A stretch of 20,000 nucleotides of DNA. Origin: an uncultured virus (IMG/VR IMGVR_UViG_3300031555_004022) (Duplodnaviria > Heunggongvirae > Uroviricota > Caudoviricetes). The translations under genes were made by a program, and so were the position numbers. Location of the stretch: IMG/VR virus record IMGVR_UViG_3300031555_004022; one strand, 5' to 3'. The notes beneath the pieces were generated by a model, which was not told the DNA's origin, did not search any database, and saw only the letters and a program-made list of their open reading frames with translations. The number at the start of each line of letters is the position of its first letter. Within the stretch, counting starts at the first letter, position 1. Shown in pieces: positions 6,003 to 17,416 of this stretch.

Positions 6003-6507
6003 TCACGCGCTCCTTTCCATCAGGTGCAGGGCCATCCGGCGCCAGCTTTCGGCCTGCTCCTTCGCTTCGGCCAGCTGTTCCTCCAGCTGGTCGGTCTCTG
6101 CTGCGCGGCGGACGTCCCGCCACGGCTTGGGGTCGTAGGTGTTCCGGGGTGCTTCTTCCTCCAGGCCCAGGGCGCGCCGGATCGCGTCGTCGATCTGGGC
6201 CATTTCCTCGTCGGTCACGTGGCCGCAGCACTTATCCAGGCGGCGGGTGTCGACGGTCTTGATCTGATCGCACAGGGCGATCGAAGGCTTCGGGGCGCTG
6301 CCGATCTCGATGTGCAGCCCACCAGGGTCAGGGCGGTCTCGTTTGGTGGTCAGATACACCACCATGCAGGTGTTACCCCCCCCCCGCGGAAAAATCGCTG
6401 ACAATGACGCCAGGGCGTCCGGGCTGCTGTTCGTGGCCCCTGCTGATCTCCATGTCCCGCTCCACGTAGTAAATATCGCCGCGGGTGATTCTCCGGTTTC
6501 TGTACAT
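6003..6507 (-). pseudogene. MazF/PemK-like protein, frameshifted at a G10 tract (6376-6385)
   Basis: RGDIYYV...GHEQQPGRPGVIVS in one frame ends at TAA 6373; VVYLTT...ALCDQIKTVDTRRL...EEMAQIDDAIRRALGL continues in another frame. G9 or G12 would join them (167 aa with G9). Confidence 0.85.
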
Positions 6508-6512
6508 TGTGG

Positions 6513-6707
6513 TCACCATTTCCTTCCGTAGCCGTAGTAGTTCCGGCGCTGCGCGTCGGTCATGTTTCTGACGTTCTTCTTCTCGATCCATTCCAGGATG
6601 CTATCCGCCACCAGCATCAGGATCAAGCCAGGCGTCGCAAGCATTACGCCCAGGGCGCCCAGCAGATAGCCCAGGCTGGCGGTGATCCGGGTGATCAGTT
6701 TCTTCAT
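6513..6707 (-). CDS. Small hypothetical membrane protein
   Basis: 64 aa with a hydrophobic segment; ATGA overlap with the upstream gene. Confidence 0.65.
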   Translation of the reverse strand: MKKLITRITASLGYLLGALGVMLATPGLILMLVADSILEWIEKKNVRNMTDAQRRNYYGYGRKW

Positions 6708-6880
6708 GTGTTCTCCAGTTCCTCGAACTCCGCGTCCAGCGGGTCGATTTCTTCCAGGATGTACACGGCGCCATGCAGCAGTCCGGCAGCGATCACAGCG
6801 ATCAGCATGACGGGCAGTTCGATCACCAGGATCAGAACGTCGCGCACTTTGTCCCAGGTCTTTTTCAGCAGTTCCTTCAT
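6704..6880 (-). CDS. Small hypothetical membrane protein
   Basis: MKELLKKTWDKVRDVLILVIELPVMLIAVIAAGLL..., ATG at 6880 overlapping the ParB stop. Confidence 0.65.
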   Translation of the reverse strand: MKELLKKTWDKVRDVLILVIELPVMLIAVIAAGLLHGAVYILEEIDPLDAEFEELENT

Positions 6881-8181
6881 TCGTCCATTCCCTCCAGGCT
6901 CCAGGCCGCCACCAGGGCGTCCAGCATTTCCAGACAGGCGCGGGCCTGCGCTTCTTCCAGTCCGGCGTTCACGACGCACCAGCGGATCATGCCGATCCGG
7001 TCGGTCTCGGTTTCCACGGACTTCTCGATCTCTGCGGCGATCTCCGCCTTGTAGGTGGTCACCGGCCCCGCCACGGGTTCGGCTGGCTTGACGTTCTTGT
7101 TCCGGTACATATCGCAGGCGGTGGTCTTGTCCGTCCGATCCATGCAGGTGTCCCAGTTTGCACAGCTGAAGCACAGGGACGTCAGCGTCTTCGGCTCCGC
7201 CTGGGTTACCGGTGCAGCCTTCGCTGCTGCCTTTGCTTCTTCGGCCAGCACCTGGCGATCGACCACTTCGCACCGGAAGTCGCAGGTCGTCCGCTTCAGG
7301 CAGCCCTTGCAGCAGCCAGCGCACCCGACCAGCTCACCCTTCCGCATGAAGTTCGCCTTGATCACGCCGTAGTGTTCACAGGGGCCGTTGGCGACCTGGC
7401 AGTCCCTGGACGCCCAGGGGTTGCCGTCGTCCTTCGGCTTCGGTGTTGCCTGCCTGGCTTCGCTGGCGTCCTTGTGGGTGATCTCCGTGCCGGTGTCCTG
7501 GGCGCGCTCGAAGGCGGCACGCTGCGCGTCTTCATCCATGCCCGCCAGGGCGTAGGCTGCGGAGAATTTCAGGCCGCCGGTGTCCAGCAGTTGCTTCAGC
7601 TCTGGGATCAGGTGGCCGGTGATCCGCTCGATCTGGGCGATCTTCGTGGTGGACTTGTTCAGGATCGCGGCGATCACGTCGCGGAGACGTCCGCTTGTCA
7701 GGTCGTACCCGGCCAGCTTCTGGCCCTTTGCCCGCATGGCTTCCAGGGTGGCCTTCAGGGTGGTGTACTCCTGGAGCTGGTCGCCGATGGACTTGACGCG
7801 CTGGCTGTTTGCGGCGATCAGGTCAATGGTTTCTTCCTCCGGCGTCTTCTTCGCCCGGACGTTGCAGGTCGCCACGCTGAACTCGGTGTGTCCCCGGCTG
7901 ACCAGCAGCTTCAGGGCCTCCCATCTGCGCTCACCGCTGACGATCCGGTACTGGCCCGCCGGGGTGGGGTCGTAGATCACGACCAGATTGTCCAGCAGGC
8001 CGGACATCAGAATATGGCCCGCCAGTTCCTCGATCTCGACGATCTCGTAGAAGTTGCCCTCGTTCCGGTACAGCTGATCGATCGGCAGGTCTTTCGTCCG
8101 GAACTTTCCGGAAGGGCCGGAAGGCTGCGCGCCTTTGCTGGCCGCGTTCAGGGTGTCCAGAATGTTGTGTCCTGTTGCCAT
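6877..8181 (-). CDS. parB: ParB/Spo0J-family protein with Cys-rich C-terminal extension
   Basis: YRNEGNFY, GLLDNLVV, YRIVSGERRWEAL (GxRR motif), ANSQR, then a HTH-like region; directly after parA. Confidence 0.85.
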   Translation of the reverse strand: MATGHNILDTLNAASKGAQPSGPSGKFRTKDLPIDQLYRNEGNFYEIVEIEELAGHILMSGLLDNLVVIYDPTPAGQYRIVSGERRWEALKLLVSRGHTEFSVATCNVRAKKTPEEETIDLIAANSQRVKSIGDQLQEYTTLKATLEAMRAKGQKLAGYDLTSGRLRDVIAAILNKSTTKIAQIERITGHLIPELKQLLDTGGLKFSAAYALAGMDEDAQRAAFERAQDTGTEITHKDASEARQATPKPKDDGNPWASRDCQVANGPCEHYGVIKANFMRKGELVGCAGCCKGCLKRTTCDFRCEVVDRQVLAEEAKAAAKAAPVTQAEPKTLTSLCFSCANWDTCMDRTDKTTACDMYRNKNVKPAEPVAGPVTTYKAEIAAEIEKSVETETDRIGMIRWCVVNAGLEEAQARACLEMLDALVAAWSLEGMDE

Positions 8182-8972
8182 TACTTCAGCACCTCCATGA
8201 TCTCACGCGCCAGGGCGGCATATTCCCGCGATACCTTGCAGCGGGGGCTGTACGACGTGACCGGCTCCTGGTTGATGCTGGCCCGCTCCACGATCACCGA
8301 CCGGCTGACCGTGGCGTCAAACGCCTGGCAGCGGTCGAAGGATTTCAGCCACTTCTCGAACTGATCGGAGGCGTCGTTGCGGCCCTTCATGGTGAAGAAC
8401 GACCGCAGCACCAGGGCGTCGTTCAGGCCGTGCAGCTGCTCGATCGTGTCGGCCATGTGGCCCAGGGCGTCAGCCTCGAAGCCGCCCAATTTCACCGGCA
8501 CGACCACCAGATCAGCCGCCACCAGGGCGTTCAGGACGGTCATGTCAAGCAGCAGGCCGCAGTCGACGATCACGTAGTCATACAGTTCCTGCACCTCCGG
8601 TGTGCCCAGGGCGGTCTGTAGCCGTCGCACCTGGTCGTTCTCGGTGTCGGTGGCGATCTCCGTGTTCGCGTCCATCAGGTAGCCGTTCGCCGGGATCACG
8701 TCGACCCGGTAGAAGCCGGTCTTCTTGTCTCCGAACACTCTGGACTGCTTCACAACGTCCGCCACGGTGACCTCGCCATGAACAGCAGACAGCAGGGCGG
8801 CCAGGCCCTTGTCCTCCGGGTCTGCCACGCCGTACAGGGTGGACAGGTTGCCCTGTTGGTCGGCGTCGATCATCAGGACACGGTGATGCGCGCCCAGGAT
8901 GCAGCCCAGGGCCGCGGCGGTCGTGGTCTTACCGGCGCCGCCTTTTTCAATCATTACAGCGATTATTTTCAT
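8181..8972 (-). CDS. parA: ParA/Soj-family ATPase
   Basis: KGGAGKTTT deviant Walker A, IDADQQGNLS, YDYVIVDCG, ALVAADLVVVP. Confidence 0.93.
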   Translation of the reverse strand: MKIIAVMIEKGGAGKTTTAAALGCILGAHHRVLMIDADQQGNLSTLYGVADPEDKGLAALLSAVHGEVTVADVVKQSRVFGDKKTGFYRVDVIPANGYLMDANTEIATDTENDQVRRLQTALGTPEVQELYDYVIVDCGLLLDMTVLNALVAADLVVVPVKLGGFEADALGHMADTIEQLHGLNDALVLRSFFTMKGRNDASDQFEKWLKSFDRCQAFDATVSRSVIVERASINQEPVTSYSPRCKVSREYAALAREIMEVLK

Positions 8973-9019
8973 ATTTCAGGCACTCCTTCACGTTTTTTGG
9001 TCTATTTCTTGTGATTTTT

Positions 9020-9460
9020 TCACTTTCTCCAGCCATCCAGGGACGGGAAGCCCCAGCGCACCTTCAGCAGGTCGGCGTCTTCCGCCATTTTCTCGCACGG
9101 CTTCAGGTTCATGTACTCGGTCAGCAGGTGGATCGCTGCGTTCGCGCTCCATACGACCGCCACGAAATACCCGGCGGCCTGGAGCTGCCGCAGCCAGTCC
9201 TTCTGGTCTTCGCTGGGCAGGTTCTTCCCGTACTTCATTTCGATCCGCAGGCCATGATATACGCCCGCCGGATAGTCCAGGATCAGATCGGGGACGCCAG
9301 GCTTCAGTCCCAGCGACTTCAGAATACCGGCGGTTGCCTTCGTTCTCTTGCCTTCGTTGGGGACGTGGTACAGGTTCTTCAGGCCGGGGTATTTGCCCTG
9401 GGCGTAGCTGGCCCACTCGATCACGGCTTGCTGTTCACTCGTTTCGCTTGCTCCTTGCAC
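9020..9460 (-). CDS. VRR-NUC domain nuclease (resolvase-like)
   Basis: LYHVPNEGKR, GLKPGVPDL, LRIEMKYGKN, SEDQKDW motifs; GTG at 9460 after GGAGG. Confidence 0.88.
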   Translation of the reverse strand: MQGASETSEQQAVIEWASYAQGKYPGLKNLYHVPNEGKRTKATAGILKSLGLKPGVPDLILDYPAGVYHGLRIEMKYGKNLPSEDQKDWLRQLQAAGYFVAVVWSANAAIHLLTEYMNLKPCEKMAEDADLLKVRWGFPSLDGWRK

Positions 9461-10518
9461 TTCTTTCTTCCTCCTTTCCTGATCAGGTGAAGGCAATCCA
9501 GGGGCACCTTGTAGGCCCGGCCCTTGCTTCCGGTCTTCCGGATCACAGCCTGGTCTCCTTCGGCGTACTCGATCAGCTCATAGACCGCCTTCTCGTCATA
9601 GCCCAGATCCTCCGCGTCCCGGATGTGTACCAGGTCGCCGGGGGCACAGGCTCGTCGCAACTTGGCGTATATGTAGGGCAGGCCGTTGAACTCGTTGATC
9701 CGGCGCTCGATGCTCTTTAGCCAGCAGCCAGGGGTCACGGCTCTGATCATTTCGGCGGCGTCTTCGTAGTTTTCGGCCATCTTTTTCGCCTTGTTGTGGC
9801 TGAATGTCTGGTGATTTTTCCGTTCTTCGGGCTTTTTCAGGTTCTTGGAAGCGCACCACCGTTTCTTGCCCTTCGGGTCTTTGGTGATGTAGTGGGCCAG
9901 GCCAGACAGGCCGTTCTCGTCATAGTCCAGGCGGCGGGTCTGATTGCGGCGTCCCAGCTTCCACGTGCTTTCCACTTCATCCATCGACAGCTGGCCGTCC
10001 ATGACGATGTGGTGGTGGCACCTGATCTTGTGGTTGTCGTCCTCTGACCATTCCGTGACATAGACGTACTTGGCAGGGGGCAGGCCCAGCTTCTTCCGGC
10101 GGTAGTTGATGCGCTTGATGTACTTCTGCATATTTTCCAAGGCTTCCTCCATGGAGCCGGGCAGGTTCCGGTCGGTATAGACCAGGGTGGCCCAGATGTC
10201 CTGGCTGGTGAAGTTGGTGTTGATCAGGCGCTCACAGTTCTTTCTGGCGTTCTTGTCCTTCAGGTTCCGCTGGGCCTGGGCATTGTAACCAGGACGGCGG
10301 CCTGCTGCCGGGATGTCTTCACGCTTTACGAACTCCGGATAGATTTCCAGCTCGACCTGATCACCGGCGTCGATCCGCTTCGTGGCGTATATAGCGCGCT
10401 TACCTTTGCGGATCAACTCCCGGACGAACAGGTCATCGTCCTGGTCTATGGTTCGATCGAAGGCTGCCTCGTAGTCGTAGGGAATGAACGGGGCGGGCTT
10501 CTTCCTTGGCTGCTTCAT
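9421..10518 (-). CDS. HUH-superfamily rolling-circle-type replication initiator (Rep)
   Basis: Motif I WATLVY, motif II HHHIV (RCHHHIVMD), motif III LAHYITK, in the canonical order; GGAGG RBS. Confidence 0.75.
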   Translation of the reverse strand: MKQPRKKPAPFIPYDYEAAFDRTIDQDDDLFVRELIRKGKRAIYATKRIDAGDQVELEIYPEFVKREDIPAAGRRPGYNAQAQRNLKDKNARKNCERLINTNFTSQDIWATLVYTDRNLPGSMEEALENMQKYIKRINYRRKKLGLPPAKYVYVTEWSEDDNHKIRCHHHIVMDGQLSMDEVESTWKLGRRNQTRRLDYDENGLSGLAHYITKDPKGKKRWCASKNLKKPEERKNHQTFSHNKAKKMAENYEDAAEMIRAVTPGCWLKSIERRINEFNGLPYIYAKLRRACAPGDLVHIRDAEDLGYDEKAVYELIEYAEGDQAVIRKTGSKGRAYKVPLDCLHLIRKGGRKKCKEQAKRVNSKP

Positions 10519-10619: not shown

Positions 10620-10648
10620 TTGACAATTACCGCGCCTTCTGGTATAAT
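10620..10648 (+). promoter_or_regulatory. Consensus sigmaA promoter, antisense to the early operon
   Basis: TTGACA (10620-10625), 17-nt spacer, TATAAT (10643-10648). Confidence 0.85.
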
Positions 10649-10731: not shown

Positions 10732-10888
10732 ATGCGCTTTTGTCGTCTTCCTCATTGTTCCGTTCCGCCTCCTTGCCCATCAGGTAGCCCACGAAGTAGG
10801 CCTTGTCGCGGGTGGGCAGTTTGGTGAACTTCTCCGCCACGGTCTGCGCGACCGTGGCGTTTTCGTTTTTCTGGGGTTCCTGGGTCAT
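10730..10888 (-). CDS. Small 52-aa protein (absent from the ORF track), similar to 15710-15832
   Basis: GGAGGTG RBS; MTQEPQKNENATVAQTVAEKFTKLPTRDKAYFVGYLMGKEAERNNEEDDKSA. Confidence 0.75.
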   Translation of the reverse strand: MTQEPQKNENATVAQTVAEKFTKLPTRDKAYFVGYLMGKEAERNNEEDDKSA

Positions 10889-12327: not shown

Positions 12328-12638
12328 GCGGTGCCCTTCTTTCTCCTGGGCTTTCCGCCATCCGGACGGCGGGCCATCTTTGCGGCCTCCATGATCGCGC
12401 GCTGGCGCTGCTCCTGGGTCTGATCTTCAGCGAAGCACGGCAGGCCGCCCATGTTGGCAGCCACGACGCGGGCGTAGGTCAGACCGGTGACCAGGACGTC
12501 CTTCAGCAGCATGATCTGCGCGACCTGCTCCGCGTTGGTGGGGTCTTCGGGTCTCATTGCCTTCGCCCAGCCGACCGCAGCGTCCAGGTCTTCGGGTTCG
12601 ACCAGTTTGTAGCCTTTCTTCTGTTTCATTTTCGTCAC
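12324..12638 (-). CDS. Hypothetical phage protein
   Basis: 104 aa, overlapping start/stop packing. Confidence 0.65.
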   Translation of the reverse strand: MTKMKQKKGYKLVEPEDLDAAVGWAKAMRPEDPTNAEQVAQIMLLKDVLVTGLTYARVVAANMGGLPCFAEDQTQEQRQRAIMEAAKMARRPDGGKPRRKKGTA

Positions 12639-13402
12639 GCCACGAAATTGATCAGAACGATCGCCGCCAGGGTAGCCACGAAGGCCAGGGTGATGTTCTT
12701 CTGGCGGGCGCCGTCCTTTTCGCCGACCGTGCCCAGGAACAGCACGAAGGCGATCAGGCCCAGCAGAATGTTCAGAAAAATGATCATCGTGTTTTCTCCT
12801 TTCCTGATTTGTCCCGTTTCGGCCCTCCGTAGGCCATCATCGGTGACGCGGGTCAGCGTCAGACGGGATGGGCCAGGGCCGCCGTGATCGACGCCCTGGC
12901 CGTATAATTCGTAAAGCGTAGGCACCGGCAGCAGCCAGGTCACCAGCACCTTCACGGCGCCGTCGTGCCGGTCTTCTTCCTCCGGCTCGTCGGCGTCTGC
13001 GTATTCTTCCATCATTTCCCGGATTTCTTCCCAGGCTTCAGCCAGGCCGGGCGCGTACTGTTCGTTGATCGTCTGGATCAGGGCGTTCAGCATTTCGGCA
13101 GCTGCGGCTGCTGCCTGGGCTACCAATTCACCGACGCGGCGAAGGGCGTCGTCCAGTTCCGCCACGGTGATCCCGGCGGCGTGGGCCAGCTGCGCGATCT
13201 GGAACTCCAACTCTTTACCGTTCCGGCGACCGGCGCCTATGATCACGGCCCGGCTGCGATCCCGTTCCTGGAGTATCTGTTCCTTGTCCATTGACGCCAG
13301 GCGGCGAAGGGTTTCGACGCCTTCGTCCATGGGGACGATCAGCTCGCCCGGTTCCATTTCCAGCTCCTGGGCGTCCGTTTCAATTATTCCGCCGTGGATC
13401 AT
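12635..13402 (-). CDS. Hypothetical acidic protein reading in frame through hammerhead A into a small membrane ORF (internal start 12787)
   Basis: GGAGGT RBS before ATG 13402; a second RBS AGGAAAGGAG precedes ATG 12787 (50-aa two-TM peptide); no stop codon between them. Confidence 0.6.
   Translation of the reverse strand: MIHGGIIETDAQELEMEPGELIVPMDEGVETLRRLASMDKEQILQERDRSRAVIIGAGRRNGKELEFQIAQLAHAAGITVAELDDALRRVGELVAQAAAAAAEMLNALIQTINEQYAPGLAEAWEEIREMMEEYADADEPEEEDRHDGAVKVLVTWLLPVPTLYELYGQGVDHGGPGPSRLTLTRVTDDGLRRAETGQIRKGENTMIIFLNILLGLIAFVLFLGTVGEKDGARQKNITLAFVATLAAIVLINFVA
12812..12868 (-). ncRNA. Type III hammerhead ribozyme A
   Basis: UCCCGUC^UGACGC-UGACCC-GCGUCA-CCGAUGA-U-GGCCU-ACGGA-GGGCC-GAAA-CGGGA; stems I, II and III all pair. 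Predicted cleavage 12862/12861. Confidence 0.8.
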
Positions 13403-13421
13403 GCGTACCTCCGAAGGTTGT

Positions 13422-13442
13422 GCCGCCCCTGGGCGGGGCGGC
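13422..13442. promoter_or_regulatory. GC-only hairpin just downstream of the DGR-like variable region
   Basis: GCCGCCCC-TGGGC-GGGGCGGC (8-bp stem, 5-nt loop), 6 nt past the stop codon, with no U-tract. Confidence 0.65.
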
Positions 13443-13448
13443 GGATTG

Positions 13449-14102
13449 TTAGATCATGGAGCCGATCAAGAAGCCGAACGCGACGCCAATGGAGTAGGTC
13501 GCGCCGTGGTTGTTGGCGACGCCGTAGCCGTTCACACCGCAGAAGTACGTGGTGGACGAAGACAACGGGGAGCGGGTGGCGTACCACCACGTCTCGCCGT
13601 TGAAGTTCTTGACGCGGTCGGCTTCGGTCTTGAAAATGGGCAGCTGTTCCTCGTCGGGGCCGTCGCACTCGGTGCCCCACTCGCCCCTGCCGAACATTTC
13701 CGTCGCAGAGGGCCGCCACAGCTTGTCCTCGGTGACGACTTCCTCGCCGCCGATCAGCTGAACGATCCGGCGGGGCGTGATCTCCGCCACCAGGTCGTCA
13801 GGCAGCAGGGCCAGGTCTTCGGTGTTCATGGTCTTCCGGTCGTCGGATTCTGCCCAGGACAGCAGCTTGCCGGGCAGGCGGTTGTACATAGGGCGCCGGG
13901 CGTGCAGGTCTTTCGCGATAAACAGGGCGCCGGTGTCGGTGACCTTCGCGGCCACGACCGTCTGGGCGATCCCGTCCTTGCCGATGTAGGTGATTTCGTC
14001 GCGTTCCTCCAGGAACTGGGTCAGGCGGCCCTGCTGGGCCTCGACGGTGATGTCGTGCCAGTTCACCGGCACCTGCTTCCACTTTCTCATAACTGCGGAC
14101 AT
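13449..14102 (-). CDS. DUF6273-like/C-type-lectin-fold protein, probable DGR target
   Basis: 217 aa from ATG 14102 (AGGAGG RBS); DKLWRPSATEMFG, QLPIF, and C-terminal WWYATRSP...FCGVNGYGVANNHGATYSIGVAFGF. Confidence 0.8.
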   Translation of the reverse strand: MSAVMRKWKQVPVNWHDITVEAQQGRLTQFLEERDEITYIGKDGIAQTVVAAKVTDTGALFIAKDLHARRPMYNRLPGKLLSWAESDDRKTMNTEDLALLPDDLVAEITPRRIVQLIGGEEVVTEDKLWRPSATEMFGRGEWGTECDGPDEEQLPIFKTEADRVKNFNGETWWYATRSPLSSSTTYFCGVNGYGVANNHGATYSIGVAFGFLIGSMI

Positions 14103-14130
14103 TGTTCTTTCCTCCTGATTGTTGGTATTG

Positions 14131-14298
14131 TTAGCCCTGGGCCGCTTCCGCGGGCGCGGGCTTGAATAAATGGTCATACTGGCCGTCCCGGTTCTCCCGG
14201 ATCGCGTTGATCAGCTCGTCCAGGCTGATCCCCAGGACGCCGACGACCTGCTGCTGCGGGGTCAGCGCCCGCTGCTTCTCCACGATGAACTCGTTCAT
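14131..14298 (-). CDS. Small 55-aa hypothetical protein (absent from the ORF track)
   Basis: GAGGT RBS; MNEFIVEKQRALTPQQQVVGVLGISLDELINAIRENRDGQYDHLFKPAPAEAAQG. Confidence 0.7.
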   Translation of the reverse strand: MNEFIVEKQRALTPQQQVVGVLGISLDELINAIRENRDGQYDHLFKPAPAEAAQG

Positions 14299-14307
14299 GG
14301 GGTTACC

Positions 14308-15113
14308 TCACTTTATGGCGTATTTTTGGATTTCTGTCTGATCGAACGGCACCGGCTCCGCGACGCCGAACAGGGACAGCTGGGCGTCGTCCAGTCGGAA
14401 CTGTTCGTCAATGTCGCAGAATCGCTCCGTCCGGGTGAATCGGTCGGTTGATTTGTTTGGTAGTGCTTGCAGCTCCAGCAGCCGTTTCCACAGCTCCGGG
14501 TGGTGGTCGTATAGGTGCCGCAGCTCCCGCCACTTTGCATTTGGGCAGAAGAAGCAGCCGTTTCGGGTTGTAAACTCATACGACGGAGAATACAGCCCCG
14601 CCTTCTTGCAGATCGCCACGGCGTCGGCTTCGGTCTTTCCGTACTTTGCCAGCAGGGACACTTTCGTCGTCCCGTCCAGCCGTGCCAGGCGATCAGCTTC
14701 GTCGTCGGCGATCCCGATGTACTGGATTACCTCGTCGTTTTTCCAGGCGGCTGCCTTGTACCGTTCCATGGGGCGGACTTTGCAATCGCGGTTTATGTAG
14801 CAGCGGCCACACAGCGGCCACGCCCATATTTTCCCCGCGTGCCGTCCACCCCCCCCCCGATCTCCTTCTGGAATAGGTCGACGAAGTTCTTCTCGCTCCT
14901 GACGATGTGTACCTTGATCCCGTGCCCCTCCAGCCACGGGATCGCGGTGTCGTAGATAAAGGCCCGATGTTCCGGCACCTCCGCGCTGATCTCCTTGTCG
15001 AACATGGTCTCGCAGTATAGGGCCTCGGTCAGCGGATCGCCATGTTCCACAGCCAGGATTGCCGACGCCATGCTATCTTTTCCGAAGGAACAGGACAGCA
15101 CATAGCGCTTCAT
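14308..15113 (-). pseudogene. PAPS-reductase-like (PP-loop) protein, frameshifted at a G10 tract (14849-14858)
   Basis: SCSFGKDS PP-loop in the 5' frame; CYINRDCK, QYIGIADDE and RNGCFFCP in the 3' frame. G8 or G11 joins them (268 aa with G11). Confidence 0.85.
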
Positions 15114-15119
15114 TGTGTT

Positions 15120-15287
15120 TTAGCCCTCCCTCGCCAGCAGTATGTTCTCGGTGATTTCCACCTTCCGGATATGTTCGGGCGCGAACGTGTTCAGGGCTTT
15201 GTTCCAGGCTTCGGTCAGGTTTTGGGCCTTCACGGTGAAGCCCGTGGTGCCGCCGTTCACAAACGTGACGATCACGATGTATTTCAC
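15120..15287 (-). CDS. Small hypothetical protein
   Basis: GGGAGG RBS, GTG start; MKYIVIVTFVNGGTTGFTV... Confidence 0.65.
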   Translation of the reverse strand: MKYIVIVTFVNGGTTGFTVKAQNLTEAWNKALNTFAPEHIRKVEITENILLAREG

Positions 15288-15301
15288 AGGGCCGCCTCCC
15301 T

Positions 15302-15586
15302 TCACAGCGTCTCGTATTTGCCGGTGGTGGGGTTCTTGTACTGGATTTCGGTGCAGCCCAGGCTGGCGCCGACGGTGTCCAAGGGCGCGAAGCTGTTGGA
15401 GTCAGAACAGACGCCCCAGAAATAGGTGACGCCGTCGTCGTCCTTGCAGCGGAACTTGTGGATCATCCGGGGCAGCATCTTCTCGATCTGCTCCCGGCTG
15501 TACTGGTATTCGCAGCGGACGCGGCGGTCGAATTTCTCGCCGTCAAAGACGGCCTTGTTCTCGTGGGTGATTTTGAAAATAGCCAT
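15302..15586 (-). CDS. Hypothetical phage protein
   Basis: 94 aa, AAGGAGG RBS; first gene downstream of hammerhead B. Confidence 0.75.
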   Translation of the reverse strand: MAIFKITHENKAVFDGEKFDRRVRCEYQYSREQIEKMLPRMIHKFRCKDDDGVTYFWGVCSDSNSFAPLDTVGASLGCTEIQYKNPTTGKYETL

Positions 15587-15591
15587 GTGTG

Positions 15592-15615
15592 CCTCCTTGC
15601 GGGGTTTCCGCTTTC
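15592..15615 (-). repeat. 24-bp leader repeat, copy 1 (identical to 17290-17313)
   Basis: GAAAGCGGAAACCCCGCAAGGAGG, ending in the SD sequence. Confidence 0.9.
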
Positions 15616-15620
15616 ATAGT

Positions 15621-15675
15621 CCCGTTTCGGCCCTCCATAGGCCATCATCGGCGGTGCGGATCGGCACCGGACGGG
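15621..15675 (-). ncRNA. Type III hammerhead ribozyme B
   Basis: CCCGUC^CGGUGC-CGAUCC-GCACCG-CCGAUGA-U-GGCCU-AUGGA-GGGCC-GAAA-CGGG; intergenic. Predicted cleavage 15670/15669. Confidence 0.82.
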
Positions 15676-15676
15676 T

Positions 15677-15701
15677 GGCACCGGGGATCCTCCCCGGTGC
15701 C
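15677..15701. repeat. 11-bp perfect inverted repeat directly 5' of hammerhead B
   Basis: GGCACCGGGGA-TCC-TCCCCGGTGCC, with no U-tract. Confidence 0.8.
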
Positions 15702-15709
15702 CTCGGTGT

Positions 15710-15832
15710 TTACTTTGCGGTCTGCTTCTCGTCGTGCTTGCCGGTGACGTAGCCCAGGGCGAACTCCTTCGCCTCGTCGTCCAGCTGGGCGAACTTCTTC
15801 AGGGCTTCCTCGATCAGGTTCTTCTTCTCCAT
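15710..15832 (-). CDS. Small 40-aa protein, similar to 10730-10888
   Basis: GGAGGTG RBS; MEKKNLIEEALKKFAQLDDEAKEFALGYVTGKHDEKQTAK. Confidence 0.75.
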   Translation of the reverse strand: MEKKNLIEEALKKFAQLDDEAKEFALGYVTGKHDEKQTAK

Positions 15833-15834
15833 GG

Positions 15835-16032
15835 TTACACCTCCTTCTTTTTGGGCGGTTCTCCGGTGGTCAGCCACGCCAGCCAGCACTCGCGGCAGGT
15901 GATATGGCTGCAATCCGCTTTTACTCCGGAAGGGAAGGGCGGGTGGCCCTTCCAGAAAATATCGGCCAGCTGTTCCACGGACGCGTCCGGGGTTTTCAGC
16001 ATTTCGGCCAGGACTTTGGTGCCTGCTTTCAC
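15835..16032 (-). CDS. Hypothetical phage protein
   Basis: 65 aa, C...CREC...WL ending, GTGA overlap. Confidence 0.65.
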   Translation of the reverse strand: MKAGTKVLAEMLKTPDASVEQLADIFWKGHPPFPSGVKADCSHITCRECWLAWLTTGEPPKKKEV

Positions 16033-16421
16033 TTCGCTGCCTCCTTCTTCTGGCCGATGTACTTACCGGCCCGGAAGCAGATCAGCGTCTGACAGAACAG
16101 CAGCACCGGCACAGCGAAGGCCAGCTCCACCAGGCCCAGCCACCAGCCCAGGGCAACAACGCCCGCAGCGGCCAGCAGCTTCAGCTCTTGCTTCACCAGG
16201 CGGCGCCATGCCCGGCGGCGGCGCTGTTCTGCCGCCTGGGCCTGTCTCCATGCTGCGATCTGGCGATCCCGTTCGGCCTGCTCCGCGGCGGCCTTCTTCT
16301 TCCGGTTCTGCTCCATGTGGTGGGACAGCTCTGCCAGCTCGATCGTTTCCTCGTCGACGAAGACGGCCCGGCTGCCGTTGTTCGTCTTCCTGGCAATGTA
16401 GATTCCATTCAATGCTTGCAT
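16029..16421 (-). CDS. Hypothetical membrane protein
   Basis: 130 aa, charged helical segment then two hydrophobic segments. Confidence 0.7.
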   Translation of the reverse strand: MQALNGIYIARKTNNGSRAVFVDEETIELAELSHHMEQNRKKKAAAEQAERDRQIAAWRQAQAAEQRRRRAWRRLVKQELKLLAAAGVVALGWWLGLVELAFAVPVLLFCQTLICFRAGKYIGQKKEAAK

Positions 16422-17328: not shown

Positions 17329-17416
17329 GTTCCCTGTCGGAACTTGTATTCTTATTATAGTTTCGTGACGGAACTTTGTCAAGCATTTCTGAAAAATAAT
17401 TGTTGCATTTCGGAAC
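17329..17416. promoter_or_regulatory. Three putative repressor operators
   Basis: GTTCCCTGTCGGAAC (17329-17343), GTTTCGTGACGGAAC (17360-17374), GTTGCATTTCGGAAC (17402-17416); imperfect palindrome GTTCC-N5-GGAAC, each followed by TT. Confidence 0.8.
17354..17382 (-). promoter_or_regulatory. Early lytic promoter (leftward)
   Basis: TTGACA (17382-17377), 17-nt spacer, TATAAT (17359-17354) on the minus strand. Confidence 0.88.

Follow-up and report, generated by a model that had tools for sequence, protein, structure and literature searches.

The stretch of DNA analysed in this study, hereafter the window, spans 20,000 nucleotides of an uncultured virus (IMG/VR record IMGVR_UViG_3300031555_004022), and our analysis concerns two elements on its minus strand, designated HH1 and HH2, which have the sequence and predicted fold of type III hammerhead self-cleaving ribozymes. 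The window is phage DNA in which nearly all genes lie on the minus strand. They include portal, large and small terminase, HNH and methylase genes, further genes for MazF-like, ParB-like and ParA proteins, a VRR-NUC nuclease and a replication initiator, and then a series of small open reading frames (ORFs). The two elements, the hairpins that precede them and the ORF in which HH1 lies are as follows, where C4 denotes a cytosine at position 4 of the catalytic core and minus-strand features are read from the higher coordinate to the lower.

12811-12869, minus strand: HH1, type III hammerhead fold with a C4 core, from sequence, covariance model and minimum-free-energy fold
HH1 landmarks, minus strand: C17 at 12862, predicted cut between 12862 and 12861, C4 at 12842, extra U at 12836
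12871-12901, minus strand: hairpin directly 5' of HH1, inside the acidic ORF (fold of 12811-12905, -50.2 kcal/mol, z -3.82)
12635-13402, minus strand: the acidic ORF, an open frame of 255 codons from the ATG at 13402, for a conserved acidic, helical protein
15619-15677, minus strand: HH2, type III hammerhead fold with a C4 core, from sequence, covariance model and minimum-free-energy fold
HH2 landmarks, minus strand: C17 at 15670, predicted cut between 15670 and 15669, C4 at 15650, extra U at 15644
15677-15701, minus strand: GC-rich hairpin of 11 bp directly 5' of HH2 (fold of 15619-15705, -48.6 kcal/mol, z -3.37)

The two elements are built alike. In the order of transcription each consists of the 5' strand of stem III ending in GU, the cleavage-site C, a 6-bp stem I hairpin, the core, a 4-bp stem II hairpin (GGCC/GGCC), GAAA and the 3' strand of stem III. 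This is the type III architecture, with three helices meeting at a junction, loops closing stems I and II, and stem III left open. In HH1, stem III pairs U12868-U12863 with A12817-A12812 and stem I pairs 12861-12856 with 12849-12844 (UGACGC/GCGUCA), while the core reads C12843 C12842 G A U G A12837 and is followed by an inserted U12836, the GGCC/GGCC stem of 4 bp and GAAA at 12820-12817. The corresponding parts of HH2 are stem III at 15675-15671 and 15625-15621, stem I at 15669-15664 and 15657-15652 (CGGUGC/GCACCG), the core at 15651-15645 and the inserted U15644. The three-way junction is the minimum-energy fold of each element, and a separate strong hairpin forms just 5' of each. A preliminary description of this DNA had called both elements complete type III hammerheads; the fold, the GUC cleavage triplet and the stems agree with that description, which passed over a core that differs from the consensus by C4 and by the extra U. 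Its observation that stem I differs in sequence and still pairs perfectly is borne out, since three of the six pairs differ between HH1 and HH2 and both sides have changed each time. Over the remaining 31 nt, comprising the core, stem II and the stem III strand, the two elements differ by a single loop base; this block occurs twice in the window and was matched in 0 of 200 shuffles. Each element also stands just upstream of a ribosome-binding site (RBS), as had been stated: HH1 is followed by AGGAG and the ATG at 12787, and HH2 by AAGGAGG and the ATG at 15586. The piece between the predicted cuts, from 15669 to 12862, is 2808 nt long, so the earlier arithmetic holds.

Both elements depart from the consensus in the core. 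The hammerhead consensus is C3 U4 G5 A6 N7 G8 A9, G12 A13 A14, A15.1-U16.1 and H17 (Perreault 2011, PMC3088659, cited throughout from an incomplete text). HH1 and HH2 match it at 12 of 13 positions, with CCGAUGA in place of CUGAUGA, that is, C at position 4 in both, and both carry one U inserted between A9 and stem II. Relatives were sought by a pattern scan of IMG/VR in which position 4 was free and G5-A9, G12-A15.1 and stem II were fixed by the pattern; it returned at least 118 loci, and together with the two copies in the nearest record (G001) there were at least 121 matches. A type III filter, which asked for GU-H, a perfect stem I hairpin and at least three stem III pairs, was passed by 55 among the matches listed (31 C4 and 24 U4), and these represent 43 distinct sequences (20 C4 and 23 U4). 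Among the same matches, near-identical relatives differ just in U4 versus C4 plus compensated stem pairs. As the U4 and C4 forms interchange among such close relatives, HH1 and HH2 belong to the hammerhead family by descent. C3, U16.1 and C17 were free in the search pattern, yet they are invariant in the 43 aligned sequences. A covariance model built from these 43 relatives, HH1 and HH2 being part of the training set, gives HH1 71.3 bits and HH2 69.8 bits, against 9.4 bits for the next best hit in the 20 kb. C4 is found in every copy examined in this phage group, namely both copies of the window, two copies in each of the related records G002 to G005, one in G006 and three in a prophage (G007), and this uniform C4 is new. 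Comparison of the C4 and U4 sequences column by column showed lineage effects in stem III and loop I and no compensating change in the core. Judged by their sequences, HH1 and HH2 are genuine elements, homologues of the type III hammerhead self-cleaving ribozyme with a variant core, and neither chance look-alikes nor obviously decaying copies. By the same alignment they belong to a phage-borne subfamily marked by a GGCC stem II, an extra U after A9 and a predicted contact between loops I and II, with C4 in this phage group. The scan also gathered elements of another kind: 66 of the matches listed failed the type III filter, and most of them look like type II from their flanks. These type II-like matches (for example L003-L005, L009 and L012) have a GAUGAU-GGCC core and a hairpin after GAAAC that ends in GUC; they share the conserved upstream sequence AACCCGCCU and recur in many gut-type viral contigs.

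Covariation across the same 43-sequence alignment of the matches listed points to selection for the paired structure. Standard pairs make up 93.9% of the cells compared with 68.7% in shuffles, and 169 cells are changed on both sides compared with 46 in shuffles, a value that 0 of 500 shuffles reached. In stem III, whose pairing was not used to pick the sequences, double changes occur at four of the six pairs, with 20-24 at each of three and 8 at the fourth. Stem I has double changes at all six pairs, its pairing having been a selection criterion, and stem II, fixed by the pattern, is uninformative. The loops also appear to be matched to each other. The best helix between loop I and loop II averages 3.05 bp, compared with 2.51 +/- 0.09 bp when partners are swapped (reached in 0 of 1000 shuffles), and its pair types covary (UGCC/GGCA, UGCU/AGCA, UACC/GGUA). 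In the window, HH2 could form UCC/GGA, and HH1 could form just two pairs. Such loop pairing matches the pseudoknots that Perreault et al. (PMC3088659) describe for hammerheads.

The surroundings of the ribozymes are also conserved as an arrangement. We surveyed IMG/VR loci with 1-kb flanks, which gave 50 distinct type III contexts among the matches listed; the 33 with at least 400 nt upstream were used and the other 17 dropped. In 32 of the 33 loci an RBS and start codon lie no more than 43 nt from the ribozyme 3' end. Directly upstream of the ribozyme, 42 nt fold at a mean of -15.0 kcal/mol, compared with -8.6 for control stretches taken 200 nt farther upstream, and folds of -12 kcal/mol or below were found in 23 of 33 upstream stretches compared with 10 of 33 controls. 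An upstream ORF of 60 codons or more ends close by in 23 loci, and in 21 of these the stop codon precedes the cut, usually by 22-55 nt. Thus a module consisting of a gene end, a strong hairpin, a hammerhead and an RBS recurs in relatives, and HH2 conforms to it: a TAA stands 40 nt ahead of the cut and is followed in turn by hairpin, ribozyme and RBS. HH2 thus has the usual intergenic layout, but HH1, as the preliminary description missed, is not simply intergenic and lies inside an open reading frame.

Pairing of the ribozymes is likewise not confined to the window. The survey of relatives that had been proposed finds same-strand pairs 0.5-2.8 kb apart in at least six IMG/VR contigs and an opposite-strand pair in at least one. 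The nearest record, G001, is identical to the window at both hammerhead sites. The only match in species genomes is a prophage in a metagenome-assembled genome of Oscillospiraceae from roe deer colon (G007), where three C4 hammerheads follow one another, each preceded by a hairpin and followed by an RBS. Judged from this related prophage, the host of the window phage is likely a member of the Oscillospiraceae. A protein-based search for relatives found two loci in IMG/VR and one in species genomes, and the subfamily model matched 2 of 151 sampled genomes of the family to which G007 belongs, one of the two being a weak match (29.3 bits). Against cultured phages, megablast of the whole window gave no match, and the DNA runs that contain the stretch are animal gut or faecal metagenomes. 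The genes enclosed by the pairs vary. G002 retains a small gene before its first ribozyme and a 96-aa gene after it (94 aa in the window), as well as the acidic ORF before its second ribozyme and the 50-aa ORF after it, and differs in the middle. G003 encloses one gene of 582 aa, and G004 and G005 enclose small genes. In G003 there is also a weak third match to the model about 300 nt past the second hammerhead (L122, 2687-2745; 17.8 bits, E 0.008).

The genes and signals around HH1 and HH2 in the window are the following.

17354-17382, minus strand: sigma-70-type promoter match, TTGACA, 17 nt, TATAAT (12/12), a consensus match only
15710-15913, minus strand: 67-aa gene upstream of HH2, its TAA 40 nt before the cut, the usual intergenic layout
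15302-15586, minus strand: 94-aa gene, first in the bracketed block, RBS AAGGAGG 22 nt after HH2
14308-15113, minus strand: split gene for a protein resembling phosphoadenosine phosphosulfate (PAPS) reductase, in overlapping frames 14793-15113 and 14308-14937
13449-14177, minus strand: DUF6273-domain protein of 242 aa (PF19789, E 2.3e-8)

Small ORFs and the acidic ORF also lie between the cuts. No strong terminator was found on the minus strand from the promoter at 17382-17354 to about 12100, and hence none between HH2 and HH1. With this promoter match and no strong terminator in between, one long transcript through both ribozymes is plausible, and on these signals the promoter is likely the start of an operon that contains both hammerheads.

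We propose that self-cleavage of both elements divides the operon transcript into three, and we put the probability of this segmentation at roughly 0.62. Each ribozyme, once transcribed, would cut itself after GUC. On the upstream piece, a strong hairpin would then stand a few bases from the 3' end, which would carry a 2',3'-cyclic phosphate. The compact ribozyme fold would lead the downstream piece, with a 5'-OH at its start and the next RBS 20-25 nt further on. The segments might thereby gain stability and translation of their own, and the cut at HH1 would leave the acidic-protein message without a stop codon. That the C4 core can carry out this cleavage is suggested by its conservation. The preliminary description had offered segmentation or a circular mRNA; segmentation fits the same-strand operon, the promoter and the recurrent module, and the circular mRNA is unsupported.

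An arrangement of this kind has precedents. Groups of hammerheads are often found on the flanks of single prophage genes or short gene blocks of varying identity, which implied that long transcripts are processed into shorter mRNAs of gene or operon length, and three tandem prophage arrangements cleave while polycistronic fragments of about 2 kb are being transcribed in vitro (Perreault 2011). The window resembles these arrays in having several same-strand hammerheads within a few kb of a phage operon and variable cargo: it has two same-strand copies 2808 nt apart, and the genes that they flank vary among relatives. Core mutants were rejected from the final alignments of that study unless activity had been measured, so C4 elements like those described here would have been dropped, and its Dataset S1 might hold C4 sequences. 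No ribozyme with its cut inside a conserved ORF, ahead of the stop codon, is described in the available portion of the paper; in this it differs from what is predicted at HH1. Phage-context type II hammerheads have been reported to cleave in vivo, and a function is known for only a few self-cleaving ribozymes (Olzog 2021, PMC8782182, likewise from a partial text). In retrozymes and viroid-like circles, two same-sense hammerheads free a unit-length RNA with ligatable ends, a pairing as in the window; as far as the partial text of Cervera and de la Pena (2020, PMC7229834) goes, those units are small non-coding repeats whose ends make up one ribozyme copy, whereas 2.8 kb of variable phage genes lie between HH2 and HH1. 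The clustered, segmenting arrangement is thus already known, and the C4 core and the stop-less ORF are the new points. A literature search with most subscription journals outside its coverage returned nothing on natural C4 hammerheads in phages or on ribozyme-made non-stop messages in phages.

Several points weigh against segmentation. The RNA data consist of assembled contigs only, from four metatranscriptome runs of two studies, and represent relatives of the window phage. The HH1 site is spanned without a cut by two contigs, both from one study, and they may stem from carried-over DNA:

12698-12930: uncut contig, X17 record 15
12597-13036: uncut contig, X18 record 23

Two contigs of one study end inside HH1, at 12840 and 12845, contigs being unable to show RNA ends. 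A second point is that C4 departs from a position treated as invariant. The known U4C hammerhead of a viroid has considerably decreased activity in vitro and is still infective (Perreault 2011). That variant is a natural C4 hammerhead working in vivo, and in this it provides a parallel to the present elements; it is a single plant-viroid variant, whereas here C4 is found in many distinct phage elements and in all copies of the related records examined. The third point is the outcome of the Rfam check that had been proposed. Nothing in the 20-kb window reached a gathering score, and a search of 3.1 kb at E<=10 gave no hammerhead row. In a 91-nt search, HH1 aligned with the full RF00008 model (1-54) at 24.5 bits, under the gathering cut-off of 48.5, and the alignment shows stems I, II and III, GUC, GAUGA and GAAAC. 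The elements differ from RF00008 by C for U4 and by the U inserted after A9, and the whole phage subfamily scores low. At E<=1, Rfam detects four of eight U4 siblings and one of eight C4 siblings, none at 48.5 bits. The U4 siblings score 26-36.5 bits against RF00008, the upper value being the best of the five detected. Because siblings with a canonical core also miss the cut-off, the low Rfam score says little. Lastly, the proposed effects on stability and translation are drawn only by analogy with engineered insulators. In synthetic insulators of the RiboJ type, a self-cleaving ribozyme placed before the RBS strips the upstream RNA and leaves a structured 5'-OH end. RiboJ is engineered, whereas the arrangement here is natural, and the analogy supplies only the supposed benefit. 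The U4C viroid variant mentioned above was reportedly described by Ambros and Flores (1998).

The position of HH1 in the acidic ORF needs to be considered in its own right. The ORF has no stop codon before the HH1 cut; its frame passes through the hairpin, which translates as GQGVDHGGPGP, and through HH1, and continues into the frame of a 50-aa membrane-protein ORF that has its own RBS and start codon (ATG 12787). The 50-aa part belongs to phrog_20576, and the upstream acidic part matches phrog_491 ('Mu Gam-like') weakly (E 4e-5). No Pfam family was found for the acidic protein, and an Atlas search gave no match above 0.78. A homologue search returned 54 clusters that are 43-98% identical over the query part, and every one carries the C-terminal motif DRHDGA..(V/I)L..WL...P.L..LYG, whose end lies immediately ahead of the hairpin. 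In 52 of the 54 there is no stop before the cut. The frame reads through the ribozyme in 45, of which 29 enter the 50-aa ORF, 14 have other tails and 2 end just past AETG; in three clusters the stop is the UGA that directly follows the cut, and in four it is the UGA of the ribozyme core. Of the two remaining clusters, one ends early and is probably truncated, and the other has a different end with a stop before the expected ribozyme site. The two clusters that end past AETG (P0004 and P0028) do so five codons past the translated core, one residue beyond this ribozyme 3'-end motif; their ends fit an HH2-like 3' flank and may mark a joint between two ribozyme types. Since all three frames occur past the hairpin, the tail is not under protein selection. 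The location of HH1 within a conserved ORF that is still open at the cut is the second new point of this study. Because the cut precedes any stop codon of the ORF, cleavage would give a non-stop message.

This raises the possibility that HH1 is a programmed non-stop device, a stop-codon remover, or a switch gated by translation, either of which would add to the segmentation of the message. In the first version, ribosomes would reach the 3' end of the cut message and be rescued by transfer-messenger RNA (tmRNA) or another system, and the protein would be tagged, low in amount or short-lived. In the second version, ribosomes reading through would unfold the ribozyme and block the cut, in a race with ribozyme folding. 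RNA polymerase of Firmicutes reportedly outruns the ribosomes, which would give the ribozyme time to cut ahead of the first ribosome and makes the non-stop outcome plausible. The absence of a stop in 52 of 54 clusters and the lack of protein selection on the tail speak for such a device, as does the recurrence of the layout in a diverged homologue of G002 (35% identity), which enters its own hammerhead straight after LYG, and in the copy of the Oscillospiraceae prophage, which likewise enters its hammerhead after LYG. Few members of the subfamily have this layout: among the matches listed, the cut is crossed by an ORF of 80 or more codons in 3 of 50 loci, two of them from the acidic-gene family and the third a spurious frame in DNA of 72% G+C. 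As noted above, 21 of 23 loci have the stop of the upstream gene ahead of the cut. However, the hairpin-hammerhead block is nearly identical in most of the 52 clusters, which are therefore not independent, the uncut message does carry a stop further on, and the AlphaFold model of the acidic protein is poor, consisting mostly of long helices with a mean pLDDT of 56.8. We regard such a device as possible and, on balance, unlikely.

Less probable is a second alternative, in which the elements are inactive or very slow relics whose catalysis is disabled by C4 and which are kept as structured spacers or by hitch-hiking. The U4 of the consensus core, the lowered in vitro activity of U4C (Perreault 2011) and the sub-threshold Rfam scores would be explained in this way. 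It is harder to reconcile with the occurrence of C4 in 20 of the 43 distinct relatives among the matches listed, with stems intact and covarying, with the retention of all other consensus core positions, including the invariance of C3, U16.1 and C17 where the search left them free, and with the failure of canonical-core siblings to reach the Rfam cut-off. We consider it doubtful that these elements are relics.

The mosaic structure of these phages brings in a third alternative, that the conserved blocks of about 60-180 bp act at the DNA level as homology patches for module exchange, cleavage being secondary. Across 12980-12801 the window matches the Oscillospiraceae prophage at an identity of 0.9-1.0, which falls to 0.4-0.5 straight after the HH1 3' end, where a different gene follows. 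A contig of a relative from the RNA libraries (X15 record 3) lacks 15589-16046, and with it HH2 and the 67-aa gene. From the drop in identity after HH1 and the contig that lacks HH2, the ribozyme blocks coincide with module joints, and the block of G002, homologous at its ends and different in the middle, would be accounted for as well. Mosaic joints at conserved sequence are nevertheless expected whatever the function of that sequence, and a role in DNA exchange leaves the compensatory stem changes, the kept catalytic core and the fixed position before an RBS unexplained, so we find this alternative very unlikely. In the same X15 contig, 750 other letters replace 14309-15315, the PAPS-reductase region.

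Least probable of all is a circular or spliced mRNA, in which the 2808-nt piece from 15669 to 12862 would be joined end to end, through reversal of the hammerhead reaction or with the help of a ligase of the RtcB type: HH1 and HH2 share a strand and identical stem III strands, so that the excised 3' end could pair with the HH2 3' strand over 6 pairs, hammerhead cleavage chemistry leaves ligatable ends (Olzog 2021, PMC8782182), and the junction, read from the sequence, would supply the stop-less acidic ORF with a UGA 19 codons on, but the cargo between paired hammerheads is not conserved (G002-G005), G007 has three in series, each element resembles ordinary intergenic punctuation, shared stem III strands are also expected from recent duplication, and spliced or circular products, although conceivable, were looked for in prophages and none was detected (data not shown; Perreault 2011), which together make the circle highly improbable. 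No joint of about 12862 to about 15669 was seen among the RNA-library contigs of relatives, which as contigs cannot show RNA ends.

Other features of the window concern the bracketed genes and the neighbouring regions rather than the ribozymes. The frameshifted PAPS-reductase-like gene of the preliminary description is confirmed, its two halves matching phrog_424 at positions 161-229 and 237-381, and the change of frame sits at a run of ten G (G10) at 14858-14849. This run (14849-14858, minus strand) could be an assembly error, a site of slipped-strand phase variation or a site of programmed frameshifting. The gene at 13449-14177 had been labelled as a target of a diversity-generating retroelement. 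No pair of template and variable repeats is present in the window, although parts of such a system could lie outside the 20 kb, and no reverse transcriptase was found among the 31 ORFs scanned or in G001. With neither a reverse transcriptase nor a template repeat, the label is unconfirmed. The C-terminus of this DUF6273 protein (13449-13560, minus strand) has a high content of N, Y, S, T and G, a possible reason for this label. A GC-rich hairpin that has no U tract lies at 13420-13443 (minus strand), immediately ahead of the acidic ORF's RBS; its only Rfam match, to a Burkholderia small RNA, is at chance level (21.4 bits, E 0.11). A search of the window for tRNA and tmRNA genes found none. On the plus strand, a 12/12 promoter match with a TG extension lies at 10620-10648, in the gap after the replication-initiator gene, and a terminator-like hairpin follows at 10835-10859 (plus strand), about 190 nt past it; the two may delimit a short antisense or regulatory transcript. 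The genes for ParA, the ParB-like protein, the replication initiator (phrog_3584) and the protein with a MazF-like toxin domain adjoin the packaging genes (6003-10518, minus strand), and this plasmid-style maintenance set suggests a possible phage-plasmid lifestyle.

In summary, this study finds that position 4 of the hammerhead core, treated as invariant, is occupied by C throughout a set of gut-phage ribozymes whose structure is otherwise intact and covarying, and consensus searches and Rfam thresholds therefore miss such elements. Should the points concerning C4 and the non-stop message fail, the locus would be an ordinary ribozyme-punctuated phage operon. In addition, a family of acidic genes consistently ends in a hammerhead that is reached before any stop codon. 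With such a stop-less gene ending, it can be tested directly whether ribozyme cleavage is linked to ribosome rescue or translation, and, if true, the stop-codon-remover function would give a phage hammerhead a concrete biological job.

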